A stretch of DNA of 21,231 bases from Fibrobacteria bacterium (GTDB lineage: Bacteria > Fibrobacterota > Fibrobacteria > UBA11236): positions 1 to 21,231 of the forward strand of contig JBGTHM010000057.1 in the NCBI GenBank assembly GCA_041746255.1. Direction: 5' to 3'. The position numbers and the translations under genes were made by a program. How positions within the stretch are numbered: the first letter of the stretch is position 1; every line of letters begins with the position of its first letter. Under the pieces are notes generated by a model. It made no database searches. It was not told the origin of the DNA and saw only the letters and a list, made by a program, of their open reading frames with translations. Shown one piece after another: positions 3,052 to 20,863 of the stretch.

Positions 3052-3319
3052 CCTAGATTAAAAACCATTCTAGAAATATATGGCGTTTTCCTTGAAAAAA
3101 TGCCCGTTTATCAGTCCCTTTGGCTTATTGGCCTAACTAGTGTTCCCGATAAGGAACGCAATAAATTCACCAATTTCAAAATAGGCTACCCAGGCGACTG
3201 CGTATTTCAAAAGGTCAAGATAGATTAGCCGATAAGGGATTAAGGCATGGGGTTCCAAAGCCGCCACTTCTCTGGATTTTGGGTAAGGGCTTTCGAGTAG
3301 GAGTTCAAGGAGTACCGCG

Positions 3320-4726: not shown

Positions 4727-6538
4727 ATGTCCCAGTTAAAATACGGCCGATATAAGAAATGGCTTCCATTTGTTTGCCTGGTTCTGTTCGGGATAAGCGA
4801 ATCCCGCGCACAACTCTCTTTTCCGGGTTGCGCCGATCTGAAAAGCTCCGATTTTAAACTGACCAAGTTGGCCACCGACGCCAAAATCATGCAACAGTCC
4901 ATCGCAAAGGATGGACGCATTTTTTACGTCAAAAAAGAAGAAGGCCAACTCAAGGTTTTCGATCCCAAAACCAAATCCACTTCCGTTCTCCTGACCGTGC
5001 CCGTTTCCACCTCCATCCATCTGGGTATTGTGGGAGTTGCGCTTGACCCCGATTTTGAAAACACCAATTGGATCTACATACGCTACTCTAAACCGGGCTT
5101 TCCAAAAGGTCCCTCACAAGCCCAATTGACCGCCAATTTAACCGAGTGGAAATGGACTCAAAGATTATCCCGGGTAACGTTATCGGGCGCGAAGGTGGAT
5201 CCCGCCTCGGAAAGGATTATTCTGGAATGGCCTTTTATCGTCGACGAGCATCCCGGTGGAGGCATCCGGTTTGCGCAAGATGGAAATTTACTGGTTAGTA
5301 CAGGCAACTCCGTCTATCCCGGCCCCCACCCGGTTTACGAGAATAAGCGCGAACGCAACGATTTGGGAACGGCTGCCAATACGAATGACCTGAACGGGAA
5401 AATCCTTCGCATCCGTCCCTTGCGTTTTTCCGATACGCAAAAACCCGCCATGGGAATTGGATCTACCTACGAAATTCCCCCCGGAAATTTCCGGGATTAT
5501 TACAAAGTCCAGATGGGATGGACGCAAAGTCAACTCGATAAAATCCGGCCTGAAATTTATAGCATGGGGCATCGCCAGTCAAACGCCATCCATTCCGACG
5601 GGGTGACCGGATGGCTGTTTAACGCGGAGGATTCCAACCAACGCGGCGACTACAAGTTTACCGAAACCGAAACCCTGCGCATGGGACCTGCCGGCGGCCG
5701 TGACGAGTATAATGTGCTGGCAAAGCCGGGATTCTATGGCTGGCCCATGGCGGAAGGTTCCAACGAAGTCCACAATTTTTATAACTGGGTTGACATGAAA
5801 CCTGGTCCCATGTTCGATACCTTGACTCCGAGGAATACTTCCATATTCAATTCGGGCATTGAACTATTACCCCCAATGATTCCGGCTTCCCTTGTCTTTG
5901 GCCGCACCCCCCTGCTGCTTCCCCAGGTTCCCGGATTTGTGGACTTGAAAGGCATGTACACGCCGATTGCAGGCCCCTTTTATCGGTACGATAATTCCCT
6001 GAACTCCCAAGTGAAATTCCCCCCACATCTGCATGAAAAATGGTTGGTAAGCGATTTTTTCCAGGGCTTTTTCCGGGCATTCACCTTGGATGCCACCGGG
6101 AAAATACTCCGTTCCGATGATATCACGGGTCCAACCTTACCACGTGGGACCTGGGATATGACAATGGGTCCGGATGGCAGCATGCATATCCTTAATCATT
6201 ACGATGGCTTATATAAAATCGAATATACCGGTGCATGCGTAAATAAAACCGTGTCCAATAAAATCGGAAATGACGCCGGGCAAAACCGGGGTTTCCGGAA
6301 TATGTCCGGTTTTTCCCTGAAATTTTCATATCGACCCGAAAATCAATTGGAGATTCAGGCTAACCTTCCCATACATTCCTTTAAACTATACGACGGCATG
6401 GGCCGGGTTCTCGGCGAAGTCAGCCCGTATTCACAATTCGCATCCCTTTCCTTCGCTCAACGGTTGAAACCCGGTATTTATACCTGGGTTGCCCAAAGTC
6501 AGAACGGTTGGAGTCAGGGAAAAACGACAATCTTCTGA
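4727..6538 (+). CDS. GSDH-family (PQQ-dependent sugar dehydrogenase-like) beta-propeller with T9SS-type C-terminal domain
   Basis: 603 aa; GGAGG RBS; signal peptide. Motifs VALDPDFENTNWIYI, EHPGGGIRFAQDGNLLVSTGN, AANTNDLNGKILRIRP, EIYSMGHR, DEYN...PGFYGWP, DMTMGPDG. Tail LYDGMGRVL...LKPGIYTW. Confidence 0.87.
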   Translation: MSQLKYGRYKKWLPFVCLVLFGISESRAQLSFPGCADLKSSDFKLTKLATDAKIMQQSIAKDGRIFYVKKEEGQLKVFDPKTKSTSVLLTVPVSTSIHLGIVGVALDPDFENTNWIYIRYSKPGFPKGPSQAQLTANLTEWKWTQRLSRVTLSGAKVDPASERIILEWPFIVDEHPGGGIRFAQDGNLLVSTGNSVYPGPHPVYENKRERNDLGTAANTNDLNGKILRIRPLRFSDTQKPAMGIGSTYEIPPGNFRDYYKVQMGWTQSQLDKIRPEIYSMGHRQSNAIHSDGVTGWLFNAEDSNQRGDYKFTETETLRMGPAGGRDEYNVLAKPGFYGWPMAEGSNEVHNFYNWVDMKPGPMFDTLTPRNTSIFNSGIELLPPMIPASLVFGRTPLLLPQVPGFVDLKGMYTPIAGPFYRYDNSLNSQVKFPPHLHEKWLVSDFFQGFFRAFTLDATGKILRSDDITGPTLPRGTWDMTMGPDGSMHILNHYDGLYKIEYTGACVNKTVSNKIGNDAGQNRGFRNMSGFSLKFSYRPENQLEIQANLPIHSFKLYDGMGRVLGEVSPYSQFASLSFAQRLKPGIYTWVAQSQNGWSQGKTTIF

Positions 6539-6585
6539 TACCCGACTGGCTTTACCGTCCCTATGCTCAATAGGAGGGAGATTTT

Positions 6586-7980
6586 ATGGAAACCGGATTA
6601 ACCGCCGCGAAGATTGGAATTGTATTCCTCCTATTCGGTTCTCTAGGGTTGTCGAATTCCTTCGCCCGATTCAAGCATCCCGGTATTTTCAATACCAAAC
6701 CAGAATTGGATTTAATCAAGGCTAAAATCTCCGCAGGGGAGCAACCGTGGAAATCGGCGTTTGAAAAAATCCAGGCGTCCAATCCCACCTCCAGAACCGC
6801 CAAGCCCAAGGCCAAAATTCCCGGAAGCAGCGATTCCAAGCACAGAAAGGACATGGATGAATTCGTCTTGGACGGTGAATACGCCTATGCCAGTACCCTA
6901 TTGTGGTACTTCACCGGGGAAAAGAAGTATGCGGATCACGCAATTGAAATTTTGAATGCCTGGAGCATCTTCGAGGATATTCCCATGTCCTTATATTTGA
7001 CTTGGGCAGCGCCCCACTACCTCAATTCCGCCGAAATTCTAAAGCATATTCCCGGGTCCGGCTGGCAGGAGTCGGATATCGAAAAATTCAGCGCCATGGT
7101 TCGGAATTATATGTTGCCGAAAATCCGGCCACCGGCGAAATGGGAATTTTGGCCCCAAAACCACGGAGCCACCACCCTGGAAAGCCACGTCGCCATTTCC
7201 ATTTTTCTTGATGATGAAAAAGAGTTCGACTTCGCCCTCAGTCTTTTCGACAAACATCTGGAAACCTATATCTATTACGGTAAAAAGGGATTTGCGGACG
7301 GCCAGTCTTTGGAAACCTGTCGCGACTTGAATCATACGAAGATGGGAGTCCTCGGCATCATGCATAACATGCAGTCGGCATTCAATCAAGGGGTTGACCT
7401 ATGGTATCGCGAAAGGGACCGACTTTCCCAATTCGCTGAAATGCATGCCGGTTGGATGACCGGGGAAACCAAGGTCCCCTCTACCATTTGTGGCGGAAAA
7501 GGCATCTGGTGCCAGGGAAACGTCTCTTGGGGCAACCCCTCCGGCCGCCCACCCTGTAATGAAACCAGTTGGGAAATCCTTTATAATCATTTAAGCACTC
7601 GACTGGGATTATCCCTTCCCATCACCAAAAAAATGAACGAAAGAAACCGGCCACTGGGCGGCATAAATAGAAGAAATATGAAATGGGAGACCCTGCTTCA
7701 CGCGAATATGGCGTACAGCTTATCTGGAAATGTGAACAGTGTTTTCGGCAGGTACGATATAGAGAGAAAGCCGGGGCTTTACCGCCACAATGGCCTCTAC
7801 CTCGTGGCCCCCCACTCCTATCCCGCCCAAATCGAGTTTTGGAATTTCACCGGCAAAAAAATTTGGGAGCGGCGTTCCGTATCCAAACCGTATTTGCTCC
7901 ATGAAGATGAGATTTCGAATGGCCAAGGGATTATCCGATTGAGGTCGCCAGGATATGTTGAGACGCTTCTGCTTCCCTAG
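6586..7980 (+). CDS. Alginate-lyase-family (PF05426-like, (alpha/alpha) toroid) putative polysaccharide lyase with T9SS-type tail
   Basis: 464 aa; GGAGGAG RBS; signal peptide. Motifs FKHPGIF...KISAGEQPW, YADHAIEILNAW, AEILKH, ISIFLDD, GQSLETCRDLNH, AFNQGVDLW. Tail WNFTGKKI...GIIRLR. Substrate not determinable from sequence. Confidence 0.82.
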   Translation: METGLTAAKIGIVFLLFGSLGLSNSFARFKHPGIFNTKPELDLIKAKISAGEQPWKSAFEKIQASNPTSRTAKPKAKIPGSSDSKHRKDMDEFVLDGEYAYASTLLWYFTGEKKYADHAIEILNAWSIFEDIPMSLYLTWAAPHYLNSAEILKHIPGSGWQESDIEKFSAMVRNYMLPKIRPPAKWEFWPQNHGATTLESHVAISIFLDDEKEFDFALSLFDKHLETYIYYGKKGFADGQSLETCRDLNHTKMGVLGIMHNMQSAFNQGVDLWYRERDRLSQFAEMHAGWMTGETKVPSTICGGKGIWCQGNVSWGNPSGRPPCNETSWEILYNHLSTRLGLSLPITKKMNERNRPLGGINRRNMKWETLLHANMAYSLSGNVNSVFGRYDIERKPGLYRHNGLYLVAPHSYPAQIEFWNFTGKKIWERRSVSKPYLLHEDEISNGQGIIRLRSPGYVETLLLP

Positions 7981-7993
7981 CTGATTTTTTGTT

Positions 7994-9421
7994 TTACGGC
8001 AGGAACAGCAATTGGCTCAGCTTCAACTCCGGCCCTTCAAACCGGACAGAATAGACACCTAACTTCAAATTATGCAAGGATAGCGATCCTTGTTGTATTG
8101 CCACGGTGTTATAGACCCGATTTCCCAGAATATCAAAGACCTGTACTTGAACGGGAAAGTGATTCGCATTGATGTGCAGATTCGCTCCCTCCCCGTATGC
8201 CCAGCTTCGATGCTGGACTATAGGAGAAATGGATGTCAACTTCTCCATGGGTAAATCGGCATGGGTGAGCGTTTCGAATTTCTTGTTGCGTTTGGAAATT
8301 TCCACTCCGGGACGATGTTTGACCGCCATTTTTTGGGTTTTGGGGAGTGGATTACCCAAGCGAACTTGAACATGATTAAGCACCATCTCCCATACGGCTC
8401 CTCCGCAATCGGGAGGATGTCCTCTTTTACTGCTCCAGGAAACGCCACCCGCACACCAGACTTTATCACCTCCGCATATGTTTCCCGGAACTTTATCATC
8501 CCCTAAAAGCCAACCCGAATGCAGCTCCGCAAAGGCTCCCATCCGTTTCTGTTCTTGTTTCCAGACATCGATTCCCTGGTTATAGGCCATTTCAGCGCTG
8601 TATATCACCGACGCGCCGCCTAACCTGGCATGGTTGAGGTCCCGGCATGTTTCCATACATTGTCCATCATAGAATGGGCCCTTTCCCCAGTGTTTTTGAA
8701 GCTCGGCCCTTCCAACCAGAATAGGTTGGTTGCCGTCTTCTTTGAGATAAAAATACCCCCGCGTCCATTCGCTCCACCGCCCTACCGCCCGTTTCAACTC
8801 CTCCTTATCGTCCAGGAAAATAGCAGTGGCGATTTGCCCTTCAATGGTGGAATGCATGGCATTATTAACCCAGGTTTTATTCTGCATCGCCGGCAGCCAT
8901 TTCTGTCGCACCATTCCGGTAAATTTCTGGATATCGGGCGCAGTCCATCCCGAACCGTTGACATGCGCCATTATTTCCGCCGCATTGAGGAATTGCGGAA
9001 CCGCCCAGGAAAGAAACAACCAGTTATCGTGCTTTTGAAATCCGGTCCAGGCATTCAATAATTTAATCGCGTGATCCGCGTATTTTTTATCTCCGCTGAT
9101 ATACCAGATAAGGGCGCAGGCATAAGCATTGGACCCATCCAAAGTCATTTCATCCATGGGGCCATGATTACTGGTACCCGAAATCGTGGCCCTGAAATTG
9201 GGGTTCCGTTTTTCGGGATTGCCATTCCGTAATTTATTGTAGGCGGCGGTCCAAGGCTGTTCCCCTTTGCTCACCTTTTCTTTAATGAAATCCAACTGGG
9301 CTTTGGTACTGAGCAAACCCGGATGTACCAGGTCCGCGCCGTAGACCATGGGACCGGAAAACCAGAGGGCGACAATTCCAATCGAAGCAAGGATTCGGTT
9401 CAATCTCGGAGTATTCATCAC
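7994..9421 (-). CDS. Alginate-lyase-family (PF05426-like) putative polysaccharide lyase, paralog of 6586..7980, with T9SS-type tail
   Basis: 475 aa (GTG 9421 or ATG 9418); signal peptide. Motifs LVHPGLL...KVSKGEQPW, YADHAIKLLNAW, AIFLDD, GQCMETCRDLNH, AYNQGIDVW. Tail TSI...VFDILGNRV...LGVYSVRF. Confidence 0.82.
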   Translation of the reverse strand: MMNTPRLNRILASIGIVALWFSGPMVYGADLVHPGLLSTKAQLDFIKEKVSKGEQPWTAAYNKLRNGNPEKRNPNFRATISGTSNHGPMDEMTLDGSNAYACALIWYISGDKKYADHAIKLLNAWTGFQKHDNWLFLSWAVPQFLNAAEIMAHVNGSGWTAPDIQKFTGMVRQKWLPAMQNKTWVNNAMHSTIEGQIATAIFLDDKEELKRAVGRWSEWTRGYFYLKEDGNQPILVGRAELQKHWGKGPFYDGQCMETCRDLNHARLGGASVIYSAEMAYNQGIDVWKQEQKRMGAFAELHSGWLLGDDKVPGNICGGDKVWCAGGVSWSSKRGHPPDCGGAVWEMVLNHVQVRLGNPLPKTQKMAVKHRPGVEISKRNKKFETLTHADLPMEKLTSISPIVQHRSWAYGEGANLHINANHFPVQVQVFDILGNRVYNTVAIQQGSLSLHNLKLGVYSVRFEGPELKLSQLLFLP

Positions 9422-9555
9422 CTTAATCTAGGCCCTGGCATCAGCCAATACCTCGCGCCCCATCCCTTAATTTTGAGAATATGTTTCCTTGAAGGAACAC
9501 AATTTGAGTCATGGTAGGATTTCGGCTTTCATGAGGTTCGGCCTCAACTTCTGAA

Positions 9556-9582
9556 AATAGGCCGGAATTACCCGCGCCTATT
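9556..9582 (-). terminator. Possible intrinsic terminator or processing hairpin downstream of the BNR_4 gene
   Basis: AATAGGC (9556-9562) pairs with GCCTATT (9576-9582). On the minus strand the stem runs into ...CCTATTTTC. The U-tract is short. Confidence 0.4.
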
Positions 9583-9651
9583 CTTGGCGCCCAGAAGTCC
9601 TCCTCCACGGAAAGCCACGTGGATTTTACTCAACGAACATCGGCAGAAGTG

Positions 9652-11127
9652 TTAACGTCCTTTTGCGGCAATCCCTGATTTGCCGGTTGGGACCCTCCGT
9701 CCATTTATTTCATGGGAGAAGCCCCATTCCGTAAACCACGGACTGGAATTCCTCACCGGTAGCACCGGTTTGATCGAGGTGCTGAGACTTCCCGGAAGTT
9801 TAAAATCATTCACTTCTACCGATTTGTGATTTTCGTCGATGACGTACAAGGACAAAATATTTTCTTGAGCCAATAAATGCCTGTCAAACAGGGCCGTTCC
9901 CGTATATTTACGCGGATGTGTGTAGACGATTTTCCAATCCTGGTAGCCTGCAGCTTCGGTAGCCATCGCGATTTCATGTCCTTTGACCAGGATATAGGCG
10001 TTATGGACGGCATCGGTCAGTATTTTTTTCCTGTCGTCATAATCCAGGCCGGTTTTTATCCCGGTGTTGGTTTTATGCCAGGCTCCATCCTCACCCCGGT
10101 AAAAATGATGAAGCATATCACCCAGGCGGTGGACAAAATGCGGACGGTTTTTCAAATCCACTGTCATACCTTCGTGATTTCTCATCTGGCCCTTGGCGAT
10201 CGGAATCGCGGCGATACCGGGGAAATTCCGTTTTAATGCCCCGTCTCCGATTGTTCCCGCTTGAACTCCGGCTGAGTTGAACCAGGTGCGCCCGTCATCA
10301 TCGCTATAGGCATAGCAAATATCGTGGGCCGTCTCCAAGCCTCCCTGTCTCCAAATCCAGCCGGCATGTAAGCGACCGTTCTGTCCGAAAACCAGATTGT
10401 CCACATAAGCGCTGGCGCCTGCGCCTTCGATGAATTTTCCGATGGTTTTCCAGGCACTGGAGGAGTATTCGTATAAAATTTGATCTCCCTCGCCGGTTCC
10501 GCCGATTCGGCGGGAAAAAAAGAGCTTACCTGAGGGAGAAGTTGTAAATAGGGGGTAGGTAACATCGGATAGCTTTTCGCTCCCCAATTTGTCGGTAATC
10601 GGACCGAATTGGCTGGCATTCCAGGGCTTGGCTCCGGGATTGCTGAGCAAACCCACCACCGATCGGCGATAATTCAAATCGTCATTGTGGTGGTCAAATG
10701 CCAAATGCAGAGTACCGTCCACGGTGCAAATCCCAAGTACGATTACGTTATGCCCATCATCCGTATTTTGCGTGTAATCCTGAAACACAAACGTTTCCCA
10801 AGGGCTTGCCGGCACTTGGCGGTTCCTCCTGGCCATCACAATTCTTCGTGGTGACTGGCCATTGTAATAAGCCGTGTATTGCCATCCCTCGTGGGTTATG
10901 AGAATATCCAATTGCAGGGAATTCCCGTTAATCGCACCGAACTTGACCGTTTCTTTTTTGATGTCGCTTCCGACCTGGGATGCGGTTAGCAATTCGATTG
11001 CCGAAGCCGGAACAGACGTCATCAGAAGGAACGTAAGACAACACCAGCCCCATACCGCCCCCGATAGGGTTATGGCATGGGATTTGGGAGCGTTGGTAAA
11101 TAACCGGAGCGTGCTAAATCCGAGCAT
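9652..11127 (-). CDS. BNR_4-repeat seven-bladed beta-propeller, PL24/PL42-like putative polysaccharide lyase
   Basis: 491 aa; signal peptide ending ASA-I. Motifs GWQYTAYYN, DDGHNVIVLGICTVDGTLHLAFDHH, VTYP, RIGGTGEG, Asp-box YAYSDDDGRTW. Short basic tail TSIKP...EINGRRV. Confidence 0.88.
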   Translation of the reverse strand: MLGFSTLRLFTNAPKSHAITLSGAVWGWCCLTFLLMTSVPASAIELLTASQVGSDIKKETVKFGAINGNSLQLDILITHEGWQYTAYYNGQSPRRIVMARRNRQVPASPWETFVFQDYTQNTDDGHNVIVLGICTVDGTLHLAFDHHNDDLNYRRSVVGLLSNPGAKPWNASQFGPITDKLGSEKLSDVTYPLFTTSPSGKLFFSRRIGGTGEGDQILYEYSSSAWKTIGKFIEGAGASAYVDNLVFGQNGRLHAGWIWRQGGLETAHDICYAYSDDDGRTWFNSAGVQAGTIGDGALKRNFPGIAAIPIAKGQMRNHEGMTVDLKNRPHFVHRLGDMLHHFYRGEDGAWHKTNTGIKTGLDYDDRKKILTDAVHNAYILVKGHEIAMATEAAGYQDWKIVYTHPRKYTGTALFDRHLLAQENILSLYVIDENHKSVEVNDFKLPGSLSTSIKPVLPVRNSSPWFTEWGFSHEINGRRVPTGKSGIAAKGR

Positions 11128-11151
11128 TAATGCCCTTTCTTCCCCTTGAAA

Positions 11152-11173
11152 TTACCCTCAACGGGAAGGGTAA
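11152..11173 (-). terminator. Intergenic stem-loop between the third barrel gene and the BNR_4 gene (weak terminator or processing site)
   Basis: TTACCCT (11152-11158) pairs with AGGGTAA (11167-11173), followed by TTTC on the minus strand. Confidence 0.35.
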
Positions 11174-11188
11174 ATTGGATTTCCGTTG

Positions 11189-11935
11189 CTAGTTCGTTTC
11201 CTGCTTGCCAAAAAGGTATTGGGCTCTGAAGGAAATCATATGGTTTGTCGATTTTGCGACTTCCGGCTTCCAGAAGGTTCGGACGCCGATTTCAAAAGCC
11301 AGCCCCGCTATAGGCGCTCCTACCACCCCATAGCCCATACTTGCCAGGTATCTCAACTCCCTATGCGTGAACCCCTCGTAGTCAACAAAGGAGGTAACCT
11401 TCCAGGGTGTTATCGCCGGGGTTATTACTCGCGCCCTAGGCCGCCAAACCCAGAAAGTGAATTGGCTGGGTTGCGAAATCAACCGTCGCTCGAACAGGTT
11501 ATCGAGTTCAAAAGAAAAACCGCTTGCCAGTGGAAGCCGTAGAGTTACTCCGGTACGGGGAAGATATTGGCGGAAATTCGAACGGGTTATAATATCATCA
11601 TAAATGCTGCTGTCGGCGATTTCCCGATTATAAACAGCCACTTCCGCCATGCCGATAAGCTCCGCGACGCCCAGCCTACCAAGCTTCAGCCGAGCCGTAG
11701 CCGCATACTCGCTGCCGGAAACCCCGATGCTGTCGAAAGCCGATTGAACTTGATCGATTTGTTCCAACCGTTCGCCGAAATACGTTCCACTACGAATTGC
11801 GAGTTCCATACCTTCCGCAACTTCGGCGCCCAGTGTAAGGTTCACGTGCTGGCCAAATCCGGCCTGGGAATTAATCGGAAAGACCGTAATCAATATTATC
11901 GGTAAAAGGGCGATGGAAAAAACGAGCTGCTTCAT
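11189..11935 (-). CDS. Small outer-membrane beta-barrel protein (DUF2490/KdgM-like), copy 3
   Basis: Start moved from 12022 to ATG 11935 (MKQLVFSIALLPIILITVFPINSQA, a clean signal peptide, 5 bp after the previous stop). Alternating hydrophobic strands, QYLPR, NLFERR, WVWRPR, last strand HMISFRAQYLF. Confidence 0.72.
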   Translation of the reverse strand: MKQLVFSIALLPIILITVFPINSQAGFGQHVNLTLGAEVAEGMELAIRSGTYFGERLEQIDQVQSAFDSIGVSGSEYAATARLKLGRLGVAELIGMAEVAVYNREIADSSIYDDIITRSNFRQYLPRTGVTLRLPLASGFSFELDNLFERRLISQPSQFTFWVWRPRARVITPAITPWKVTSFVDYEGFTHRELRYLASMGYGVVGAPIAGLAFEIGVRTFWKPEVAKSTNHMISFRAQYLFGKQETN

Positions 11936-11940
11936 ACGGA

Positions 11941-12678
11941 TTATTCCCGGAAAGGCCGGCCAAAAACCCAACGCACCTGCAAGGTCAGACCGTGCATGAC
12001 ACCGGGTAGTTCCGGCCGCCATTGGATGTTGTCGCTCAACCGGACATGAAGAGCCTGCAAAGGTTCAATGTCGATCCCAAACGCCGTTTCCGCCATATAT
12101 TTGACGTCCTTGATATCATGTCCCTCATAATACCCGAAAGCGGAAAGGCTAAGCGGGCTGATGGGAGGGGTATGCAGCGCCATCATGGGACGCCAAACGA
12201 AGGAAGTCAGCCGTTCCGGGCTTACGATGAGCCGACGCTCGAAGAGGTTGCCGAATCGCAGGAGAAATCCCGATACCATGGGAAAGTCCACGACAAGGCC
12301 TACCCGGGGAACATATTCCTTTAGGCTTGCAGCGGTAACGGTATCGTCATCCCTATCGAGGTCGGAAATTGCGCGATGGCGATATTGCACTTCGCCTGTT
12401 CCGGAAAGCCATGCGTTTCCAATGCGACCCAGATGCACCTTACCGGCGGCAAAAAATTCTCCTCCCGACGCGGCGCCCGAGTCATACACCGGATTGAACA
12501 AATCGATTTGCTCCATGTGGTGGCCGAACAAGGCCGAGCCTCCTACTCCCAGGGTAAAGCCTTCTGTCAGACCATATTCCACGCCAAGCCCGAGCTTCTG
12601 CCCGAGTCTGGTCTTGGCATCCGGGATTGCGCAGGGAATCAGAAACAGGGCGGTTAGTAGCGAATAGGAGAATTTCAC
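11941..12678 (-). CDS. Small outer-membrane beta-barrel protein (DUF2490/KdgM-like), copy 2
   Basis: Start moved from 12744 to GTG 12678 (AAGGA RBS; MKFSYSLLTALFLIPCAIPDA signal). Motifs EYVPR, NLFERR, FVWRP, YYEG, last strand HGLTLQVRWVF. Clear paralog of 11189..11935. Confidence 0.72.
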   Translation of the reverse strand: MKFSYSLLTALFLIPCAIPDAKTRLGQKLGLGVEYGLTEGFTLGVGGSALFGHHMEQIDLFNPVYDSGAASGGEFFAAGKVHLGRIGNAWLSGTGEVQYRHRAISDLDRDDDTVTAASLKEYVPRVGLVVDFPMVSGFLLRFGNLFERRLIVSPERLTSFVWRPMMALHTPPISPLSLSAFGYYEGHDIKDVKYMAETAFGIDIEPLQALHVRLSDNIQWRPELPGVMHGLTLQVRWVFGRPFRE

Positions 12679-12747
12679 GGTTATTTTCCTTGATGTAAAA
12701 GAGGTGGAAACATTGAATGCATGCTTACCGCGTTCCGGCCGCAAAGA

Positions 12748-13575
12748 TTATCTGCCGTTCCAAGCGGTAAGATCCAAGGTGTAAAAAGCATAGAGACATA
12801 ACAGGTGGTTACGGATGAGTTCAGAACCACCGTAGCGAAGTTGGAAATTGTCCGCAAGGCTTACCGATAAGCCCCGGACCGGAGCGAAAGTAATACCGAA
12901 TTCCGTTTCCGAGTAGAAATCGGTCCCGAGCTGGTTAAAAGCCTCTGAATACACATAGGGAGTGATTTTGAAATCGGTAAATGAGGGAGCGTTCAATCTC
13001 AACAGGGAACGGTACTGATTGGTGGCGAAGACCTGAGACGGCACCAGAGACCTAATGATATTCCCGTTCTCATCCTCAATCTCCCGGATATTCGCCCAGG
13101 TAGTGATGGAGCGCTCGAAGCGCTGACCCCATTGCACCGATCCACCAAATGGAAGCGGTTTGGTCAGAAATACATTCCACCGCGGGCGGTACTCGGACAA
13201 CACCGATTCCCCATCGTAGAAAATCCTTTCCAAAAAATAGACGTCGCCACCCATGCTCAACTGGATTCCGGAAAAAATCTCCCCGAACTCAACGGAAAAA
13301 CCGGGGACGACATCCCAACCGATATACTTGTAAGGATTGGTCAAGGAGTCGACTTTATATTGAGGGCCGGTTCCGAAGTAGGAGGCGCCGAATATCCCGA
13401 CCGTGACGTCTTTTTCCACCTTGACACGGACCCCGCCCAAGGCGCGATGGGAGCGGAAGGATTCTTTCAATTTCTCCTCGCCGGTCCCGGATTGGGCGGC
13501 CACGGGCGCAAAAGAAAGCAGCATGGCGGATACCGCCATTGCCACAATTGGATTCACGAACTCCACCTTTCTCAA
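12748..13575 (-). CDS. Small outer-membrane beta-barrel protein (DUF2490-like), copy 1
   Basis: 275 aa; the TTG start overlaps the upstream TGA (TTGA at 13572-13575); signal peptide ending VAA-Q. EYRPRW, QRFERS, QYRSLLRL and ITPYVYSEAFN resemble the DUF2490 pattern. Last strand HLLCLYAFYTL. Confidence 0.72.
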   Translation of the reverse strand: MRKVEFVNPIVAMAVSAMLLSFAPVAAQSGTGEEKLKESFRSHRALGGVRVKVEKDVTVGIFGASYFGTGPQYKVDSLTNPYKYIGWDVVPGFSVEFGEIFSGIQLSMGGDVYFLERIFYDGESVLSEYRPRWNVFLTKPLPFGGSVQWGQRFERSITTWANIREIEDENGNIIRSLVPSQVFATNQYRSLLRLNAPSFTDFKITPYVYSEAFNQLGTDFYSETEFGITFAPVRGLSVSLADNFQLRYGGSELIRNHLLCLYAFYTLDLTAWNGR

Positions 13576-14627
13576 CGAACTACGATTTTTCTTGAAAGCA
13601 CCGTTCGGCCCGACTCCGAGGCCTGCAGCACGTAGAGACCGTGCGGCATGCCTTCAGTTCCTATAGCCACGTGATTTTCACCGGCACTAACCACCAGGTT
13701 AGCCATCTTGCGCCCATGGATATCAACCAGGCTGACCTCATTAACCAAATGTCCCACCGGAAGATTCATGGATAGGGTGGATCCGGTAAGCGTGGGGTGG
13801 ATTTCACCGACCAGATAGCGGGCAAAATTGGGGTTCTCCGAAATTTGGGTGACGTTATTGGGAATGGGATTCTTGAACCTTTCGACGAAGTCTTTCGGAG
13901 AGGCGTTTTCATTTCCCGTCAAGAGGTACCAGATCATGCCGACATCGGAAATGTCACCCGGCTTTTGATAGAAGCGGGAATGCACCCATGGCCAAGGCTG
14001 CGGCATGGATTTCATCGCATCAAAGTTTCCGCCCTCACCCAGGTTTTTGTTCTGATTGGAAATGTCGATGAATTTATAGCCCCCCGGCAGCGCCTTCATG
14101 GTATTCCAGGTATTCTTCATTTGGGGGGTGTCATTATGGGTATTGTTCGCATTGGAATGCGAAATCATGGTAATGAATTTACGCTTGTCCATATCCACCA
14201 CGTTCAGCATGCGCCAGGCGGACTCCATGGGCCCGGTACAAACGAAGGTCAATGGATCATCCGCAGTGGACTTATCGGCTTCCTTTTTGAAATTGTCAAT
14301 CGCGGCGCTCAACTCCTTTTGCAAATCGAATACCATGTTTTTTCTGAAATTAAACCGTTCCACAGCGCCCTGGACGCTGATCTCCATCTGCGTTTCCTTT
14401 TCCTTTTTGCTGGACCCGAGGTGGTTATTGTAATCGAAATGCACCAATTTATCCTGAATGCCCCAGGCCCAGATTGTCGCCAAGCTGAATGCCGAAGCAC
14501 CGATATCATCCCGGTCATGTTCATTACCGTCGTGGGTAACGGCCATTCGACCCTTAAATTTTTGGGCCTCTGCAACAGTAAGTCCGAATATTAAGGCTGT
14601 TAGGCTAAATACGGAAAAAACTTTCAT
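13572..14627 (-). CDS. Secreted protein of unknown function with a nucleoside-hydrolase-like Asp cluster and T9SS-type C-terminal domain
   Basis: 351 aa; AGGAG RBS; signal peptide ending AEA-Q. RMAVTHDGNEHDRDDIGA (strand followed by D...DxDD) and FVCTGPME resemble the nucleoside hydrolase DxDxxxDD and xGP motifs. Tail IHPT...LVDIHGRKM...HGLYVLQ...SRKIVVR. Confidence 0.7.
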   Translation of the reverse strand: MKVFSVFSLTALIFGLTVAEAQKFKGRMAVTHDGNEHDRDDIGASAFSLATIWAWGIQDKLVHFDYNNHLGSSKKEKETQMEISVQGAVERFNFRKNMVFDLQKELSAAIDNFKKEADKSTADDPLTFVCTGPMESAWRMLNVVDMDKRKFITMISHSNANNTHNDTPQMKNTWNTMKALPGGYKFIDISNQNKNLGEGGNFDAMKSMPQPWPWVHSRFYQKPGDISDVGMIWYLLTGNENASPKDFVERFKNPIPNNVTQISENPNFARYLVGEIHPTLTGSTLSMNLPVGHLVNEVSLVDIHGRKMANLVVSAGENHVAIGTEGMPHGLYVLQASESGRTVLSRKIVVR

Positions 14628-14835
14628 GGTATTACTCTCCTAACCCCAGGCCTACTTCCTTTGGAAGACATCACTCAGGCACTCGGGTTGATGTGGATAC
14701 TTCATTCGAAGACTTACGAATGAATTTAATGCGGCACTGGAAATCAAAATTGAGAAGTAATAAGAATTCGTTCCTGCTGGGAAACAAGGCCCGAAAGCTC
14801 TCCAGGTAAATTTTTCCGACTAGTGCGCAATTTCC

Positions 14836-15816
14836 CTAGCGGGACAAAACCATCCGGTGAATGGCGGTTTTGCCGGCGACTTCCGCCACAATGAAATATT
14901 GCCCGGGTCCGGATTTATCACCAAAAGGCCGCCAGATACTCTGGTTATTTCCGGATTTAAGGGTGCGAATGGAAGGAGAGCCCAGCATACGGCCGCTGGT
15001 GTCGAATAGTTTTAAGGAAAGCGGCGTATCTCTCAGGGTTGTGGCACTAACCTCTACCCTATTGTCGGGTAATGTTCTCAAGGATAAGCCTTGCCCGTGA
15101 TTGAAAGCCAGAACAGAGGATGGTTTGTATTCGGATTCCGCTCCGATATAAGCATTGGTTACCGTCATATAGGCATCATGCGACATTTTGTCATTGGAGT
15201 ACAGGCCCCATCGGAAATAATTTTTGGTGCCGGAAGACGTATGATTGGGTTTGCCCGAGTACTTCTTGACCCCATTGAAATAAACTTCTTCCACCAACCC
15301 ATTGGAGCGGATTTTCAGTTCGAATTCTTTATCCTTGTACTCCGATGCCAGGGTTGTCGGACCCTTTCCCTTCGGAGAAAAGGTGATTCGATGTCCGTCG
15401 TTCATGTGGACCATGATTTGCGGGTTTTCCGTGACATTATCCTTTAGCTGGGCGATGCAGATCAGCTTCATTTCGGTTTTTACTTTCCAGGTCCCCTGCA
15501 TGATGTACCATTTGTTGCCCGGATTGAATTTTTCATTGCCATACACTTCCAGACGAGCATGAATCCTTCCCTCAGTGGACACGTCCCCCTTAAAGAGTTG
15601 AAAGGCTTGGACATTCCCCTCTTCCCGGTAATTTTTGGTGTACTTGTGAAAATCGGGCCTTTGAATATGCCTGTCATTCAAAACCCACAAGCGAATGTCC
15701 TGGGGAATTTCAGCCCAGACCGTAGAAAATACCCCTAAAATAAATGCGATAGGGAGCGATACAAATCTTTCAGAGATTTTTGCAAATTTTTTCCGCATAG
15801 AAGCGTGCCAATGCAT
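14836..15816 (-). CDS. Beta-jelly-roll polysaccharide lyase (PL7/PL28-like) with T9SS-type C-terminal domain
   Basis: 326 aa (start may be ATG 15798); signal peptide ending VWA-E. Three jelly-roll lyase motifs in order: HARLEV, CIAQLKD, NYFRWGLYS. Tail LFDTSGRML...PGQYFIV. Confidence 0.78.
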   Translation of the reverse strand: MHWHASMRKKFAKISERFVSLPIAFILGVFSTVWAEIPQDIRLWVLNDRHIQRPDFHKYTKNYREEGNVQAFQLFKGDVSTEGRIHARLEVYGNEKFNPGNKWYIMQGTWKVKTEMKLICIAQLKDNVTENPQIMVHMNDGHRITFSPKGKGPTTLASEYKDKEFELKIRSNGLVEEVYFNGVKKYSGKPNHTSSGTKNYFRWGLYSNDKMSHDAYMTVTNAYIGAESEYKPSSVLAFNHGQGLSLRTLPDNRVEVSATTLRDTPLSLKLFDTSGRMLGSPSIRTLKSGNNQSIWRPFGDKSGPGQYFIVAEVAGKTAIHRMVLSR

Positions 15817-15822
15817 TGAGGT

Positions 15823-17385
15823 TTATTTCGCAACCGGGCGCTCATCCTGTACGGGAACCAGGATTAATCGGGACCGACCGCGGGTGTCATATGCCGAACC
15901 ATTATCCGCTTCCTTTCCAAAACGAATAAAGTTCACTTGAGCGTTTTCAAACCGGATTTTAGACTGATTTTGGAGCGGAGGAAGGATGGACGCTTTCCTG
16001 ATGGAAGTCGACTCATCCCGAAATTTCAAAAGCATCAGGCGGGTGTCCGGCGGAACGGGGTTCGGTTTATTTGTCCCATTAGCCGGCAAAGTATACCGGC
16101 GAAGGGCGTAAAAGATTCCCGGTTCATCGCTTTTTCCGCGCCCGAACTGGAAACGAATCTCCATCGTACCCGCTTTCACTTGACCTTCTCCGCCACCCGG
16201 GGTGGAGGTAAGGGGAATCGTGGCGGTGGGTTTTAAGGTCTCCTCATTCAAGATCCACTTTCCGGATCCGTAAGTAGGGTGGTCCCAGTATTGCGTCAAT
16301 TTTCCGTCTTCGATAATTACGGAATTGATTACGATGAGTTTCGGGAGAGAACCCGTACCCCCGACTTTCCAAGTATAATCCTTCCAATCGCTGGTTTGCA
16401 CGAGGTCCCAGGCTCCCTTGGCTTCGGACCACCGGGCATTGTAGGCCTGGCTGATTCCCTTGGAGTCATAACGGTGATAACTGATGACGGGCCGTCCTTT
16501 GGAATCGAAACCCATTTGGTTGGACTGGTTGGTAAGTCCTTGTTTGGTCGGAACCGGATCCACACTCACCTTTTTTTCGGACACGGTGATCGGCAGGCTC
16601 AGCGGCTCTCCGCGAGCGGTTTCCCAGGCATCCAAATTGGGACCGCGGGTGCGGATGTAACTCAAGTCGTGGGTGCTGCTGACATCCGGTGAATCGCGCC
16701 ACACAAAGCTGATGTGGAAACGGCCGTCATCCCCGGGATGGTACCTGCTGCCGAAATAGGCGTTAACACTTCCCGCATTGCTGAAAAGAGGCGCACCGTT
16801 ATACAGAGAACTCCAGGAACGCTTATCCGGACGGGAATCGTATTTGTTGTAATACCAAACGCCGTCTCCGCTGCCTCCAAGCCGATGTACGAAATACAGC
16901 TCGCCCGTGGGCATCTTGAAAAAACGCGGGTAGGTCACCCTGGCCTCGCGCTCCTTGGAAACCATGTTGGGCACCTGGACCAATGTGCTGATGTCACCGG
17001 CTACTTCGGTACGGAAGTAAATGAGGGGAACGGCATGCATGTTTCCCGAGACATGCAAATGCCCCTGATCGTCGAGTTCGATGACGACATAATTGTGAGG
17101 ATCCCAACCGATTTTAGTGGGGAGTACTTTAAGGGAAAATTTGTCGGAGTCGAGGGTGCGGGAACCGACCACCATACTGTGATCCGAATTGTAATAAGCG
17201 ATGAACTGCCGGTTTCCATCGGTAAGCAGGTCGAGGTTGACCGGAAATCCGGCCGGTACCATGGCCACGAACAGGGAGTCGATAGGGTCGGTGGGAATGG
17301 CCGCAAGTGCGACCTGGGCGCGAGGAGCCGAGAATCCCAACCAGAGCAACGATACCAGGAAAACCAACCGACCGATGTGACTCAT
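15823..17385 (-). CDS. BNR_4-repeat seven-bladed beta-propeller, putative polysaccharide lyase (second subtype)
   Basis: 520 aa; signal peptide ending PRA-Q. Motifs QFIAYYN, GWDPHNYVVIELDDQGHLHVSGNMH, VTYPRF, RLGGSGDG, NAY, VWRDSPD, HDLSY, GFDSKGRPVISYH. Tail TSIRK...AYDTRGR. Confidence 0.88.
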   Translation of the reverse strand: MSHIGRLVFLVSLLWLGFSAPRAQVALAAIPTDPIDSLFVAMVPAGFPVNLDLLTDGNRQFIAYYNSDHSMVVGSRTLDSDKFSLKVLPTKIGWDPHNYVVIELDDQGHLHVSGNMHAVPLIYFRTEVAGDISTLVQVPNMVSKEREARVTYPRFFKMPTGELYFVHRLGGSGDGVWYYNKYDSRPDKRSWSSLYNGAPLFSNAGSVNAYFGSRYHPGDDGRFHISFVWRDSPDVSSTHDLSYIRTRGPNLDAWETARGEPLSLPITVSEKKVSVDPVPTKQGLTNQSNQMGFDSKGRPVISYHRYDSKGISQAYNARWSEAKGAWDLVQTSDWKDYTWKVGGTGSLPKLIVINSVIIEDGKLTQYWDHPTYGSGKWILNEETLKPTATIPLTSTPGGGEGQVKAGTMEIRFQFGRGKSDEPGIFYALRRYTLPANGTNKPNPVPPDTRLMLLKFRDESTSIRKASILPPLQNQSKIRFENAQVNFIRFGKEADNGSAYDTRGRSRLILVPVQDERPVAK

Positions 17386-17661
17386 TAACTACTTCTTTCG
17401 CGGAGCATTACTGTCTTAACATAATCAGAAATGTAAGAGTGGACAGATGGTTTTGGCGATTCCGACCCTGGAACTATACCCTCCCCTTTCGACCGTTCGG
17501 AAAAAGTCCTCTTGGAAAGGATTTAATGGGGAAAATGGCCAAAAAGCGAATTCCTATACGCATTTCCTCTATTTTTATAGGTGGCATTGGGAACTTACGG
17601 CTACAGTCTGATTGTTTCCAAAAAGCAACAGAATTCCGTCAAATCCGCTTACCGATATTTA

Positions 17662-17712: not shown

Positions 17713-19419
17713 ATGGGCGCCCTAAAACCTGTTTTCGCCTTATTTTGGGGTTGCCTGATATTCGAACCGTACGCACAGTTCACCTTTCCGGGCTGCAAAG
17801 ACCTGGTTCGCGGCGATTTCAAACTGGTGGAAGTGACGAAGTCGCCGGCGTACCATCTCCAACATCTTCCCGACGGGAGGATCTTTTATACGAGCGGCAG
17901 GGGCGGCGAAGGGACCATTCATGTCTATGATGCCGCCAAGCGGACGTCGATAGCCCTTAAAAATTCGGGTGGAGGCCGAAATTTTGGAATTGCGCTGGCT
18001 CCCGATTTTGATCAATCCAAATGGATTTACACTTATGATTCCAAGGTTTTTGGAAAAGGTTATCTCTACCGTCAAACTTATGACGAAAGCGATCATTCCC
18101 TGAATTCCAAAAAACTTATTCTCGAATATGTTGACGGTTTAAGCGGCACGGATCACGCCGGCGGCGGTTTTGCCTTCGACCGGGACGGCAATTTGCTCTT
18201 GGCCATTGGGGACAACGCCAACCCGGGTGACGGATTCGGTTCCATTAACGAATCCAAAAACAATTTCAGCTCATTGCGTACGGCAGCAAATACGAACAGT
18301 CTGATGGGAAAGCTCTTGAGGATAAAACCCATTCCTTTTCCCGATAACCAAAACCCCAAAGCCGGTCTAGGGCAGACCTATGCTGTTCCTCCGGGAAATC
18401 TGGGAGAAACCTTTCGCCAAAGCATGAACTGGACGCCTCAGGATATGGAAAAGATCCGACCCGAAGTTTATACCATGGGCCACCGGAATCCCTGGAATCT
18501 GGGATACGACCCGGCGCACAACTGGATCTTGCTTCCCGAACCCGGTCCGCGCGCGGAAGCGAACGACCCCGCCAGAGGTCCGATGGGGGGTGACGAATTC
18601 AACCTGGTGAAATCTCCCGGAAATTACGGGTGGCCCATGTTTATCGGTCCCAATCTTCCTTTTAATTTTTTCGATTACCAAAACAATAAAATGGGTCCCT
18701 GGTTCGACCCGGCCCAACCTACGAATACCTCCCGGTTCAATACCGGGGTGGAAAAACTACCTCCACCTAGGCCCGCATTGTTTTTTCATCTGAAAAATCA
18801 AACCTTGATGCTTTGGCAAAAGGGCGCCCCGGTAGTTTATGATACCGATAAACTTTGGAATGGCACGGGCAAAAAAAATCAAGCTACGGTGGCAGGACCA
18901 ATGGTCAATTATTCGGTCAACAGCACTGACGCGGCCAGGCTACCCCCTCAATTGCATAGGTCATGGTTGATTTCGGACTATTATTTGAAAACAGTCAAGG
19001 CGCTGGCCTTGGATGAAACAGGGGAGAACGTCTTGGGGATACATGATGTGGTGGATGCCCCGGCTAGCGTCACGAATCTTTCCATTAATCATCAGGGAGT
19101 GGCCTATATGACCGCCCAAACCCATGGGATGTATCGCATCGAATATACGGGTACTTGCCAGACCAAACAGTTGCCGGCGGTTTCCGTGCATGCCGCGCTT
19201 CATCGCTCTTCGTTGAAAAATTCAACCCGCATGCTCATAACCCAGGAAAGCTTAAAATCCTGGCCTCCTCCGCCAAGCGCCAAATCGGTTAGCCTGTTCG
19301 ATTTGCAAGGCAAACTCTTATTCGAAAAACAACTGTCTGATGGAAACTCAATTTTGCCGGAATACCCAAAAGGTAAAAACCGTTTGGTGATGCTGGTTAT
19401 TCAATATCCAGGGGATTGA
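17713..19419 (+). CDS. GSDH-family (PQQ-dependent sugar dehydrogenase-like) beta-propeller with T9SS-type tail, paralog of 4727..6538
   Basis: 568 aa; GAGGA RBS; signal peptide. Motifs IALAPDFDQSKWIY, DHAGGGFAFDRDGNLLLAIGDN, AANTNSLMGKLLRIKP, EVYTMGHRNPW, DEFNLVKSPGNYGWP. Tail LFDLQGKLL. Confidence 0.87.
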   Translation: MGALKPVFALFWGCLIFEPYAQFTFPGCKDLVRGDFKLVEVTKSPAYHLQHLPDGRIFYTSGRGGEGTIHVYDAAKRTSIALKNSGGGRNFGIALAPDFDQSKWIYTYDSKVFGKGYLYRQTYDESDHSLNSKKLILEYVDGLSGTDHAGGGFAFDRDGNLLLAIGDNANPGDGFGSINESKNNFSSLRTAANTNSLMGKLLRIKPIPFPDNQNPKAGLGQTYAVPPGNLGETFRQSMNWTPQDMEKIRPEVYTMGHRNPWNLGYDPAHNWILLPEPGPRAEANDPARGPMGGDEFNLVKSPGNYGWPMFIGPNLPFNFFDYQNNKMGPWFDPAQPTNTSRFNTGVEKLPPPRPALFFHLKNQTLMLWQKGAPVVYDTDKLWNGTGKKNQATVAGPMVNYSVNSTDAARLPPQLHRSWLISDYYLKTVKALALDETGENVLGIHDVVDAPASVTNLSINHQGVAYMTAQTHGMYRIEYTGTCQTKQLPAVSVHAALHRSSLKNSTRMLITQESLKSWPPPPSAKSVSLFDLQGKLLFEKQLSDGNSILPEYPKGKNRLVMLVIQYPGD

Positions 19420-19423: not shown

Positions 19424-20863
19424 ATGACCCATAAAACAAAACGACTCCATATGAAACTGACTTTTCCGGTTACCGTGGCTTTAGGTCTGATAGCCAATGG
19501 TCTTGCCCAGGACGGAAAAATCTATTTCGAAAAAATCACCCTCCACGAAGGCAACGCCTCGGAGGGCGTATCCGTGGGCGATTTTAATAATGACGGCCAT
19601 TTGGACGCTTCCAACGGTCTCTATTGGTGGCCGGGACCCGACTGGAAGAAGAAACACCGTATGGGTCCCACGGGTAATTTGGATTATCCGCTAAACGATT
19701 ACGCCTATTACTATATGCCTATTCGTCCGCTGGACATCAACAATGACGGCTGGCTGGACGTACCCTTCCAAAGAGGCTTGAAGAATGGGTTCTGGCTGGA
19801 AAACCCGGGTCCGGGCAAACAGGAAGGCCTTTGGAAGGAACATACTTTCTCACCCATCGGCGGAGAGTCCGCCCAGGTCTATCCACTGTTTGGCGGCAAA
19901 GCCGATGTGCTGCTTTCCAACAATATCCCCAGCGGAACCACGGGTCCGCTCACTTGGAGCAAATACGATACGGCGACGAAAAAATGGGTTTACAACAGAA
20001 TCTCCGCTACGAATTATCCGCATAACCACCACGGCTTGGGTCTGGGAGATATTACCGGTAATGGCCGTAACGATGTCCTGGTCTATGACGGATGGTTCGA
20101 ACAACCGGCCGTGGTTGAAAAGGATGTCGCCTGGAAATTCCACCCGTTTAAACATAAGAACCCCTACCAGACAAGCGGATATACGGGAGGCTCACATATG
20201 TTCGCAGCCGACTTTACCGGCAATGGAAAGGCCGATTTCGTAACCTCTCTCAACGGCCATGGCTGGGGACTGGCCTGGTATGAACAGGTGGAAGAGAATG
20301 GAGGAATCTCTTTCAAGCAGCATATCATCATGGGAGACGCGAACGAAAAATCGAAATATGGTCTGGCGTTTTCCCAATTGCATTCCCTGGCCTTAGTCGA
20401 TATCAACGGGGACGGCCTTAAGGACATTGTTACCGGAAAACGCTGGGCCGCCAAAACCAGCGACCCCGACAGCCGAGGCGACGCCGTGATCTATTGGTTC
20501 GAACAGCGCCGCACCAGCAGCGGCACCCAATTCATTCCCCATCTGGTGGATGCGAACTCGGGGTCGGGCCTCACTTTGGAAACCGTGGATATGGATGGCG
20601 ACGGGTTTCCCGATATTGTAACCACGAATAAAAAAGGAACTTTTATATTCCTGACCAGAGGCCATGCCAAGACCGGAGTGGCTATGCCTTCACCTTCACT
20701 CAAATACAACCGATACGGTCTGTTTCAACCCGTTATGCTTTACCCCCATTCCGCCGATAAAACCTTGGGCCAAGAGCGCTATAACTTGACGGGCCGCTTC
20801 GGGAGCCCTTCCCGGTATTCTCCGGGCTTGTACATTGAGAAGGTGCGGTCCGATGGAAATTAA
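19424..20863 (+). CDS. FG-GAP/VCBS-repeat beta-propeller protein, secreted, paralog of 3320..4699
   Basis: 479 aa (start may be ATG 19451); signal peptide ending GLA-Q. Loops DFNNDGHLD, DINNDGWLD, DITGNGRND, DFTGNGKAD, DINGDGLKD, DMDGDGFPD. Tail YNLTGR...PGLYIEK. Confidence 0.9.
   Translation: MTHKTKRLHMKLTFPVTVALGLIANGLAQDGKIYFEKITLHEGNASEGVSVGDFNNDGHLDASNGLYWWPGPDWKKKHRMGPTGNLDYPLNDYAYYYMPIRPLDINNDGWLDVPFQRGLKNGFWLENPGPGKQEGLWKEHTFSPIGGESAQVYPLFGGKADVLLSNNIPSGTTGPLTWSKYDTATKKWVYNRISATNYPHNHHGLGLGDITGNGRNDVLVYDGWFEQPAVVEKDVAWKFHPFKHKNPYQTSGYTGGSHMFAADFTGNGKADFVTSLNGHGWGLAWYEQVEENGGISFKQHIIMGDANEKSKYGLAFSQLHSLALVDINGDGLKDIVTGKRWAAKTSDPDSRGDAVIYWFEQRRTSSGTQFIPHLVDANSGSGLTLETVDMDGDGFPDIVTTNKKGTFIFLTRGHAKTGVAMPSPSLKYNRYGLFQPVMLYPHSADKTLGQERYNLTGRFGSPSRYSPGLYIEKVRSDGN

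Follow-up and report, generated by a model that had tools for sequence, protein, structure and literature searches.

What does a tandem set of three small barrel proteins do when it is encoded directly behind a secreted protein in a member of the Fibrobacterota? The stretch of DNA that raises this question, hereafter called the window, is the entire contig C57 (21,231 bases) of a 4.59 Mb Fibrobacteria genome (the source genome) that consists of 130 contigs, and the barrel genes occupy positions 11189-13575. To our knowledge, Fibrobacterota degrade polysaccharides without importers of the SusCD type, and the route by which the products cross the outer membrane is poorly known. One answer would be a small specific channel, inherited in pairs along with a surface enzyme. 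An earlier, sequence-only reading of the window proposed that the three proteins are DUF2490/KdgM-like porins for oligouronates.

Following up this proposal computationally, we come to favor, with moderate confidence, the reading that the barrels are TonB-independent outer-membrane channels for small anionic solutes (acid sugars, organic acids, perhaps short acidic oligosaccharides). The reading is supported by the fold match of the barrels, their tie to DUF2490, transporter genes in the neighborhood of related barrels, arginines predicted to point into the lumen, the lyase-like and BNR_4 surroundings in the window and the lack of a SusD match, and also by overlapping barrel genes and the two-clade tree. 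What is new is a rare subfamily of barrels that occurs in tandem sets of usually two old types and has a partner with the nucleoside hydrolase (NH) fold, which is probably secreted by the type IX secretion system (T9SS). Paired barrels beside carboxylate or acid-sugar transporters and a secreted NH-fold protein represent a testable functional lead for DUF2490, a large family without established function.

Three diverged barrels and their family

The barrels belong to a series of four consecutive genes on the minus strand, in which the gene of the 351-aa NH-fold partner (13572-14627) is followed by those of barrels C, B and A. Barrel C (12748-13575, minus) comprises 275 aa if translated from a TTG start or 263 aa from the ATG of the public gene call P0001. 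Barrel B (11941-12678, minus) has 245 aa from a GTG and is identical to P0007, and barrel A (11189-11935, minus) has 248 aa from an ATG and is identical to P0006. The spacers measure 69 nt from the stop of C to B and 5 nt from the stop of B to A. As stated in the sequence-only reading, these head-to-tail reading frames encode diverged paralogs, with BLASTP identities of 33% for A and B (E 1e-49), 23% for B and C (E 9e-13) and 22% for A and C (E 8e-8).

The motifs listed in that reading, (E/Q)YxPR, FER(R/S), WRP/YRS and P..I(T/S)P, are likewise present; in the form EYRPR/EYVPR/QYLPR, FERS/FERR, YRS/WRP and P..I(T/S)P they make up, together with a late His, those alignment columns that are best conserved across the family. 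The His itself (residue 257 in C) is found, but the DSSP string places it within the last strand and not, as had been described, before it. Nearly invariant throughout the family are E154-R155 as well as R117, Y129, R132, R189, E211 and H257. Each barrel starts with a plausible signal peptide, which ends in ...VAAQ in C and in ...NSQA in A, and closes with a last strand of the Y-x-F/L-D type. Barrel C additionally contains a long hairpin insertion at about residues 158-185.

An AlphaFold2 model of barrel C, built on a 31-row alignment, adopts a beta-barrel fold (mean pLDDT 87, pTM 0.77). In a full VIA-align scan over 48,161 chains, the best match of this model is VhGalP (8xua; Z 15.2, 184 residues aligned, rmsd 3.4 Å), next to which stand KdgM (4pr7; Z 15.1, 162 of 171 residues aligned, rmsd 2.6 Å) and NanC (2wjr; Z 15.1). 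LpxR (Z 13.1), OMPLA (Z 12.2), Tsx (1tlw; Z 11.9) and BcsC (Z 8.5-8.7) appear further down. Foldseek returned only rows of the VDAC, TOM and BamA type for the barrel model (TM 0.14-0.41, rmsd 7-26 Å), which we judged uninformative. The proposed KdgM/NanC-like barrel is thus borne out as a small barrel whose three best structural matches belong to the KdgM family, but not as a member of that family by sequence: PF06178 matches neither A, B and C (E<=10) nor 31 family members (E<=1) nor any protein of the whole genome, with a positive E. coli control, and the family profile finds no porin relative in the PDB, its single match being a chance one (E 1.4).

The comparison with the KdgM family (KdgM of Dickeya, NanC of E. 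coli, VhGalP of Vibrio; PF06178, TC 1.B.35) therefore has two sides. The barrels resemble these porins in size (~220-245 mature residues), in their apparent lack of a plug and of a periplasmic domain, in the many basic residues that are deduced for the lumen face and, in the window, in their lyase-like neighbors. NanC has been described as a barrel of 12 strands in which two strings of basic residues face each other (PMC3706956). Unlike these porins, the barrels described here lack sequence similarity to the family, show 11 DSSP strands, come in tandem sets and have an NH-fold protein as partner instead of a lyase; moreover, the KdgM family occurs in Proteobacteria and the present barrels occur in Fibrobacterota. 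Tsx offers a second comparison as a small, specific 12-stranded channel, and the barrel genes here follow a gene of the nucleoside hydrolase fold. However, Tsx scores 3 Z units below the KdgM family, and the barrel locus is devoid of nucleoside-metabolism genes.

Positions that face the lumen were deduced from strand parity, i.e. from alternating hydrophobic and polar columns, and not from coordinates. Counted in this way, the lumen face carries 9-19 Lys/Arg and 7-16 Asp/Glu per protein, and the mean net charge over 26 sequences is +3.4 (range -1 to +7), with +4 in A, +2 in B and 0 in C. The inward positions include seven conserved arginines (R117, R130, R132, R152, R156, R187 and R189) besides the likewise conserved E128, E154, E211 and E223; R155, the best-conserved Arg, and H257 have outward parity.

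With regard to the family, DUF2490 (PF10677) is the only recurrent Pfam family in scans of the members. Barrel C itself matches PF10677 with 14 bits (E 0.043) against a gathering score of 29.8 bits, and A and B have no Pfam match at E<=10. Among the 31 family members, seven match PF10677; the best, P0024, lies above the cut-off with 34.3 bits, and the six others reach 14-20 bits. All seven fall into one of the two clades described below (clade II), and clade I is without a DUF2490 match. In addition, DUF2490 accounts for 22 of the 30 Atlas clusters that are nearest by language-model features (score 0.96, 183-193 shared features in the rows shown), which serves as a lead and not as an alignment. 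The DUF2490 tie of the sequence-only reading is consequently distant but real, and on these comparisons the barrels are classified as a rare, far-diverged offshoot of DUF2490 and not as KdgM members by sequence. Like DUF2490 (TC 1.B.81), they combine a signal peptide and a barrel with a conserved mixture of Arg, Glu and Tyr, which recalls the buried network of two cations, two anions and a Tyr reported for DUF2490 models (preprint 10.64898/2026.07.29.741452). Unlike DUF2490, the three window proteins stay under the cut-off and clade I shows no match at all; the source genome holds no canonical DUF2490. In the TCDB, DUF2490 figures as putative porin family 1.B.81, whose functions are not established according to that source (PMC4827864). 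Literature searches, in which subscription journals were not covered, yielded no functional test of DUF2490 and no description of the cassette under DUF2490 and Sde_0182, and nothing under DUF1593.

The subfamily is rare. Among 1.84 billion cluster representatives, its profile finds 27 proteins at E<=0.001, of which 21 reach E<=1e-10, and since PF10677 counts 4,234 UniProt members (preprint 10.64898/2026.07.29.741452), the profile missed the bulk of DUF2490. Five of the 27 are identical to, or contained in, paralogs of the source genome itself, and in two of the weakest, long proteins of 807 and 1270 aa, the match is broken up into 10 short stretches each. Word-based homologue searches returned five proteins for C, only itself for A and four for the NH-fold protein. 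When the best candidates of each genome (at most nine) were scored, two of 296 genomes of the phylum contained barrel matches, namely the source genome and G251, a Fibrobacteria metagenome-assembled genome; the sole other genome of the same genus gave no match among its best candidates (again at most nine).

Tandem pairs behind a putatively secreted nucleoside-hydrolase-fold protein

Eight loci were counted, and the barrels stand in tandem sets at every one of them. Five are in the source genome, which has 12 barrel matches: three barrels on C57, two each on C48 (L009), C102 (L012) and C10, and a pair on C107/C16 that is split over contig ends. The other three are L014 in G251 and the metagenome contigs L026 and L027, both found by a search with a narrow alignment. 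At C107/C16, the two pieces of the split barrel (L011 on C107, 3-347; L010 on C16, 2-421) cover profile positions 8-122 and 128-265 and are probably halves of one broken gene, so that C107 and C16 are probably adjacent in the genome. Joining them would link an NH-fold gene, a sulfatase and a 3-keto-disaccharide hydrolase to tartrate-dehydrogenase-like, kinase and oxidoreductase genes.

A maximum-likelihood tree of 27 barrels divides into two clades with 100/98 support. On this tree, a clade II barrel comes first and one or more clade I barrels follow at C57, C48 and G251. The same order applies to L026, where the second barrel, P0014, belongs to clade I and the first, which is not on the tree, was assigned to clade II by a 'YPNRF' stretch resembling P0009, P0010 and P0013. 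At C107/C16 the complete second barrel is of clade I, and the broken first one, also off the tree, is taken as clade II owing to its high score to a C-rich profile. C102 and C10 deviate in that both of their barrels lie within a sub-branch of clade II, where the two first-position barrels group together (97/96), which indicates that the pair was duplicated before these loci split. At L027 the contig end truncates the first barrel, whose final 27 residues are similar to the neighboring barrel. Within the window, A clusters with the barrels that come second at C48, C16 and G251, and B diverges earlier (98/94); judged by their placement on the tree, B and A are not recent duplicates. Barrel genes overlap by 4 nt at three loci (C102, C10 and L026).

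At all six loci in Fibrobacterota, a gene for a signal-peptide protein with a T9SS-like tail stands directly upstream of the first barrel. In the window this is the 351-aa protein, in which a signal peptide is followed by an NH-fold domain (~23-256) and a T9SS type-A-like C-terminal domain (CTD; ~274-351). Nucleoside hydrolases and NH-like proteins make up all of the 13 best VIA matches of its model (pLDDT 73.5), with Z 12.9-15.3 over residues 22-256; among them is Sde_0182 (2yhg; Z 14.5). The match that ranks next, with Z 9.6, falls on the C-terminal domain and is a T9SS CTD. An invariant DGNxHDxDD, with D33, D38, D40 and D41, occupies the beta1-alpha1 loop between the strand 27-31 and the helix 41-54, and an invariant D225/D228 follows ~190 residues later. 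In canonical nucleoside hydrolases this loop carries the Ca2+-binding motif DxDxxxDD, according to a review that also reports Sde_0182 to lack activity on nucleosides and presumes furanose sugars to be its ligands (PMC8910321). We infer that the NH-fold protein would serve as a Ca2+/furanose-binding or glycoside-cleaving module.

The main domain of the window's protein is without a Pfam match, neither this protein nor its three close paralogs match PF07632 (Sde182_NH-like) at E<=1, and the NH-fold profile found no match of note in the PDB. The upstream proteins at C102 and C10 match PF07632 above the cut-off (36.8 and 38.5 bits), and four upstream proteins plus the second copy at C48 share 38-41% identity with the window's protein. 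Between the two types of upstream protein, BLASTP finds nothing outside the tail, and hhalign aligns the Asp motif only (probability 7%); the two types are related at the fold level only. The NH-fold T9SS gene is tandemly duplicated ahead of the barrel pair on C48 (L009, 1084-3642), and a sulfatase gene, within which the contig ends, comes after those barrels. Elsewhere in the source genome, six full-length PF07632 genes (550-600 aa, E 1e-70 to 6e-78) on C23, C35, C8, C100, C83 and C118 stand without adjacent barrels, a sizeable expansion for a family with no known activity. The idea that all NH-like genes need barrels was accordingly rejected, the contigs of these six canonical genes having no barrel match.

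The upstream gene probably encodes T9SS cargo, as had been suggested; its tail matches PF18962 Por_Secre_tail (E 1.9e-4, 22.1 bits against a cut-off of 27) and TIGR04183 (E 9.5e-4, 19.1 against 23), in both cases below the cut-off. The CTD finds mirolase (Z 9.6) and RemA (Z 8.6) within a range of Z 8.2-9.6 for mirolase, RemA and RemZ, although fibronectin-type domains score alike. A match to SprA_N shows that the source genome carries a T9SS translocon gene.

The sequence-only reading further regarded the first barrel as translationally coupled to this gene. The TTGA overlap exists in the DNA (TTG of C at 13575-13573, TGA of the upstream gene at 13574-13572), and TTG is the sole start of C that yields a charged n-region of the signal peptide (MRK...), a trait of the homologues; C is coupled only if TTG is the true start. 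Since the gap between the upstream gene and the first barrel amounts to 27-141 nt at the four other measurable loci, such coupling is not conserved. The conserved unit comprises the NH-fold T9SS gene, which the sequence-only reading had regarded simply as cargo, and two barrel types, with lyases being local neighbors only.

Proposed channel function and its alternatives

The neighborhoods of the other loci point to acidic solutes. On L026, a GntR-type regulator with a periplasmic-binding-like domain is followed by a clade II barrel (hhalign to the family: probability 100%, E 1.3e-48), by P0014 and by TctC, TctB and TctA, i.e. a binding-protein-dependent carboxylate uptake system; neither an NH-fold gene nor a CTD gene is found on this contig. 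On L027, the end of a barrel and barrel P0018 precede an MFS transporter, for which the top-scoring NCBIfam model is that of the D-galactonate-transporter subfamily (E 6.8e-72, below the cut-off). Next to this barrel-MFS unit lies an integrase gene of the IS type (rve; 2446-3096). In G251 (L014), an NH-fold gene and two barrels precede a tartrate dehydrogenase (TIGR02089, 474.4 bits, above the cut-off), a DUF1537 acid-sugar-kinase-like gene, a Gfo/Idh/MocA oxidoreductase and an MFS transporter of the same D-galactonate-transporter subfamily (E 2.5e-69). The run of tartrate-dehydrogenase-type Iso_dh, DUF1537 (SBD_N/NBD_C) and Gfo/Idh/MocA genes is common to L014 (7632-12775) and C16 (L010, 1272-5432) and represents a candidate acid-sugar catabolic pathway downstream of the barrels. 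The flanks of other loci contain sulfatases, a 3-keto-disaccharide hydrolase, a large Ig/beta-helix protein and an epimerase. The source genome has no SusD match, and its seven Plug-domain (TonB-dependent) genes lie away from the barrels.

Lyase genes, on the other hand, are absent from the other seven of the eight loci, and the assumption that the barrels belong to the lyases was rejected for this reason. From the earlier proposal, uptake of acidic solutes is retained on account of the TctCBA and anion-type MFS neighborhoods; its specificity for oligouronates does not follow, as it relies on the one locus that has lyases.

Taken together, we propose that the barrels act as anion-preferring channels for uptake. 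In Fibrobacterota, T9SS-secreted enzymes at the cell surface would release small anionic solutes, the NH-fold protein being one such surface enzyme or binding module that feeds the barrels; in the window, the secreted lyase-like neighbors may feed them too. The solutes would then diffuse through the barrels across the outer membrane without TonB. The two co-inherited barrel types probably cooperate: they may assemble into a hetero-oligomer, or each may serve a different solute.

Several observations weigh against this channel reading. Other 12-stranded barrels (BrkA, COG4313, FapF and Hbp, with autotransporters among them) reach Z 14.3-14.6 and thus lie less than 1 Z unit below the KdgM-family porins, so that the match is one to an architecture or barrel class and not to a function. 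The DSSP string of the C model shows 11 strands (residues 39-268) instead of 12, with an N-terminal segment of low confidence. The first ~10 residues of the matched porins remain unaligned to the model, and in most members the mature N-terminus before strand 1 has 4-10 residues, too short for a normal first strand. Judged by the distribution of short fixed turns and long variable loops, the end of the last strand lies in the periplasm and the beginning of strand 1 would lie outside, so that a twelfth strand is expected before strand 1. The inward charges of C are near balance (12 Lys/Arg against 12 Asp/Glu), which fits a salt-bridge network or a filled barrel as well as an anion path. The earlier claim that conserved Arg residues line the lumen is consistent with the seven arginines of inward parity, but not with R155, which has outward parity. 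A simple pore does not account for the most conserved residues, E154-R155 and H257, and an open pore in the C barrel is hypothetical. Finally, the window holds no transporter gene, transporter contexts are limited to three loci, and at L014 the transporter is four genes away.

If not channels, the barrels could be docks or assembly partners that hold the NH-fold T9SS protein at the cell surface, with transport being secondary. PorP/SprF-like barrels hold T9SS cargo with a type-B CTD at the cell surface, and the present case is similar in that a small outer-membrane barrel gene comes directly after the gene of a T9SS-secreted protein. A CTD-bearing NH-fold gene occupies this place at six of six Fibrobacterota loci, an adjacency that is kept though the upstream proteins of C102 and C10 show no BLASTP similarity outside the CTD. 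The other CTD-bearing enzymes of the window and the six canonical PF07632 genes are without barrels, and the TTGA overlap, if used in the window, would agree with docking too. Nonetheless we consider docking unlikely. The barrel pair of L026 sits inside a transporter operon without any cargo gene, the CTD resembles type A (PF18962/TIGR04183, RemA and mirolase folds) and not type B, no barrel matched PorP_SprF (PF11751) in the Pfam scans, and the enzyme-to-barrel gaps at other loci speak against conserved coupling. Co-folding of barrel C, barrel A and the NH-fold protein from separate alignments gave a score of 0.00 in two runs without controls and is evidence neither way.

Similarly doubtful is the view that the barrel is filled and houses a buried charge network or a catalytic site, which would make it a structural outer-membrane protein or a lipid- or LPS-modifying enzyme such as OMPLA or LpxR. 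The near-invariance of E154-R155, R117, Y129, R132, R189, E211 and H257, the balance of inward charges, the buried network reported for DUF2490 models in the above preprint and the presence of LpxR and OMPLA among the structural matches would all suit this explanation. KdgM-family porins, however, outrank both enzymes by 2-3 Z units, no lipid or LPS genes lie beside any of the eight loci, and TctCBA, the anion-type MFS and the acid catabolic neighbors fit transport and not lipid modification.

A more elaborate version of the uptake reading, which we regard as quite improbable in this specific form, treats the cassette as a TonB-independent Sus-like uptake unit. Here, the NH-fold protein, delivered to the surface by the T9SS, would bind or cut an acidic glycan fragment that contains a furanose and pass the product to a hetero-oligomeric channel formed by one barrel of each clade. 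The missing first strand might then mean that the barrels complete each other or need a partner. Irrespective of this version, the cassette resembles the SusC/SusD systems of Bacteroidota in that the gene of a presumed surface glycan-handling protein stands beside that of a putative outer-membrane uptake barrel, amid secreted polysaccharide-degrading enzymes; unlike in SusC/SusD, the barrel locus has no TonB-dependent barrel, Plug or SusD, and the barrels have 11-12 strands compared to 22. If true, the Sus-like uptake unit would be the first mechanism for DUF2490 and would show how SusD-less Fibrobacterota import breakdown products. Export channels for an acidic end product or polymer, in line with the secretion barrels FapF (Z 14.3) and BcsC among the fold matches, are very improbable, as the neighboring inner-membrane systems are of the uptake type (TctCBA with its binding protein, D-galactonate-transporter-subfamily MFS) and the neighboring enzymes are catabolic or degradative.

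Surroundings of the barrels in the window and on C102

Downstream of barrel A, at a distance of 61 nt, lies the gene of a BNR_4 beta-propeller protein (9652-11127, minus; PF15892, E 4.9e-63). It reaches 132.5 bits with a BT3686-type NCBIfam model, far below the cut-off of 700 bits, and as a BNR_4 gene was not seen at the other barrel loci, it is local context and no conserved partner. On the other side, 208 nt before the NH-fold gene, a gene at 14836-15816 (minus) gives a weak match to the jelly-roll lyase family Alginate_lyase2 (PF08787, E 1.2e-4, 22.5 bits against a cut-off of 29.7) and is local context as well. Beyond it, farther upstream, lies a second BNR_4 neighbor at 15823-17385 (minus), on the same strand as the barrels. 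A PF05426 Alginate_lyase gene at 7994-9421 (minus) scores 50 bits, above the cut-off. The lyase-like same-strand flanks described earlier are hence confirmed for the PF05426 gene, but the PF08787 match stays under its cut-off and the two remaining neighbors are BNR_4 proteins.

A scan of 9400-17600 found 6 promoter-like sites, compared to 7.8±2.4 in shuffles, and 16 terminator-like sites, compared to 10.8±3.7, both within the range of the shuffles. A terminator-like hairpin at 14806-14790 on the minus strand precedes the NH-fold gene.

On C102 (L012), a 1085-aa protein with PKD, Big_2, Big_13 and beta-helix domains (4822-8079) is encoded downstream of the barrel pair on the same strand, and a 211-aa reading frame lies between the two.

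Nearly the whole contig of the window (1-21231) codes for signal-peptide proteins in duplicated sets, several of which have T9SS-tail-like ends. It contains three BNR_4 paralogs (3-977, 9652-11127 and 15823-17385) and a convergent pair of PF05426 alginate-lyase-like genes (6586-7980, plus; 7994-9421, minus). Three GSDH-like beta-propellers are encoded at 1294-3051, 4727-6538 and 17713-19419, and two FG-GAP proteins (3320-4699 and 19424-20863) each adjoin a GSDH-like gene.

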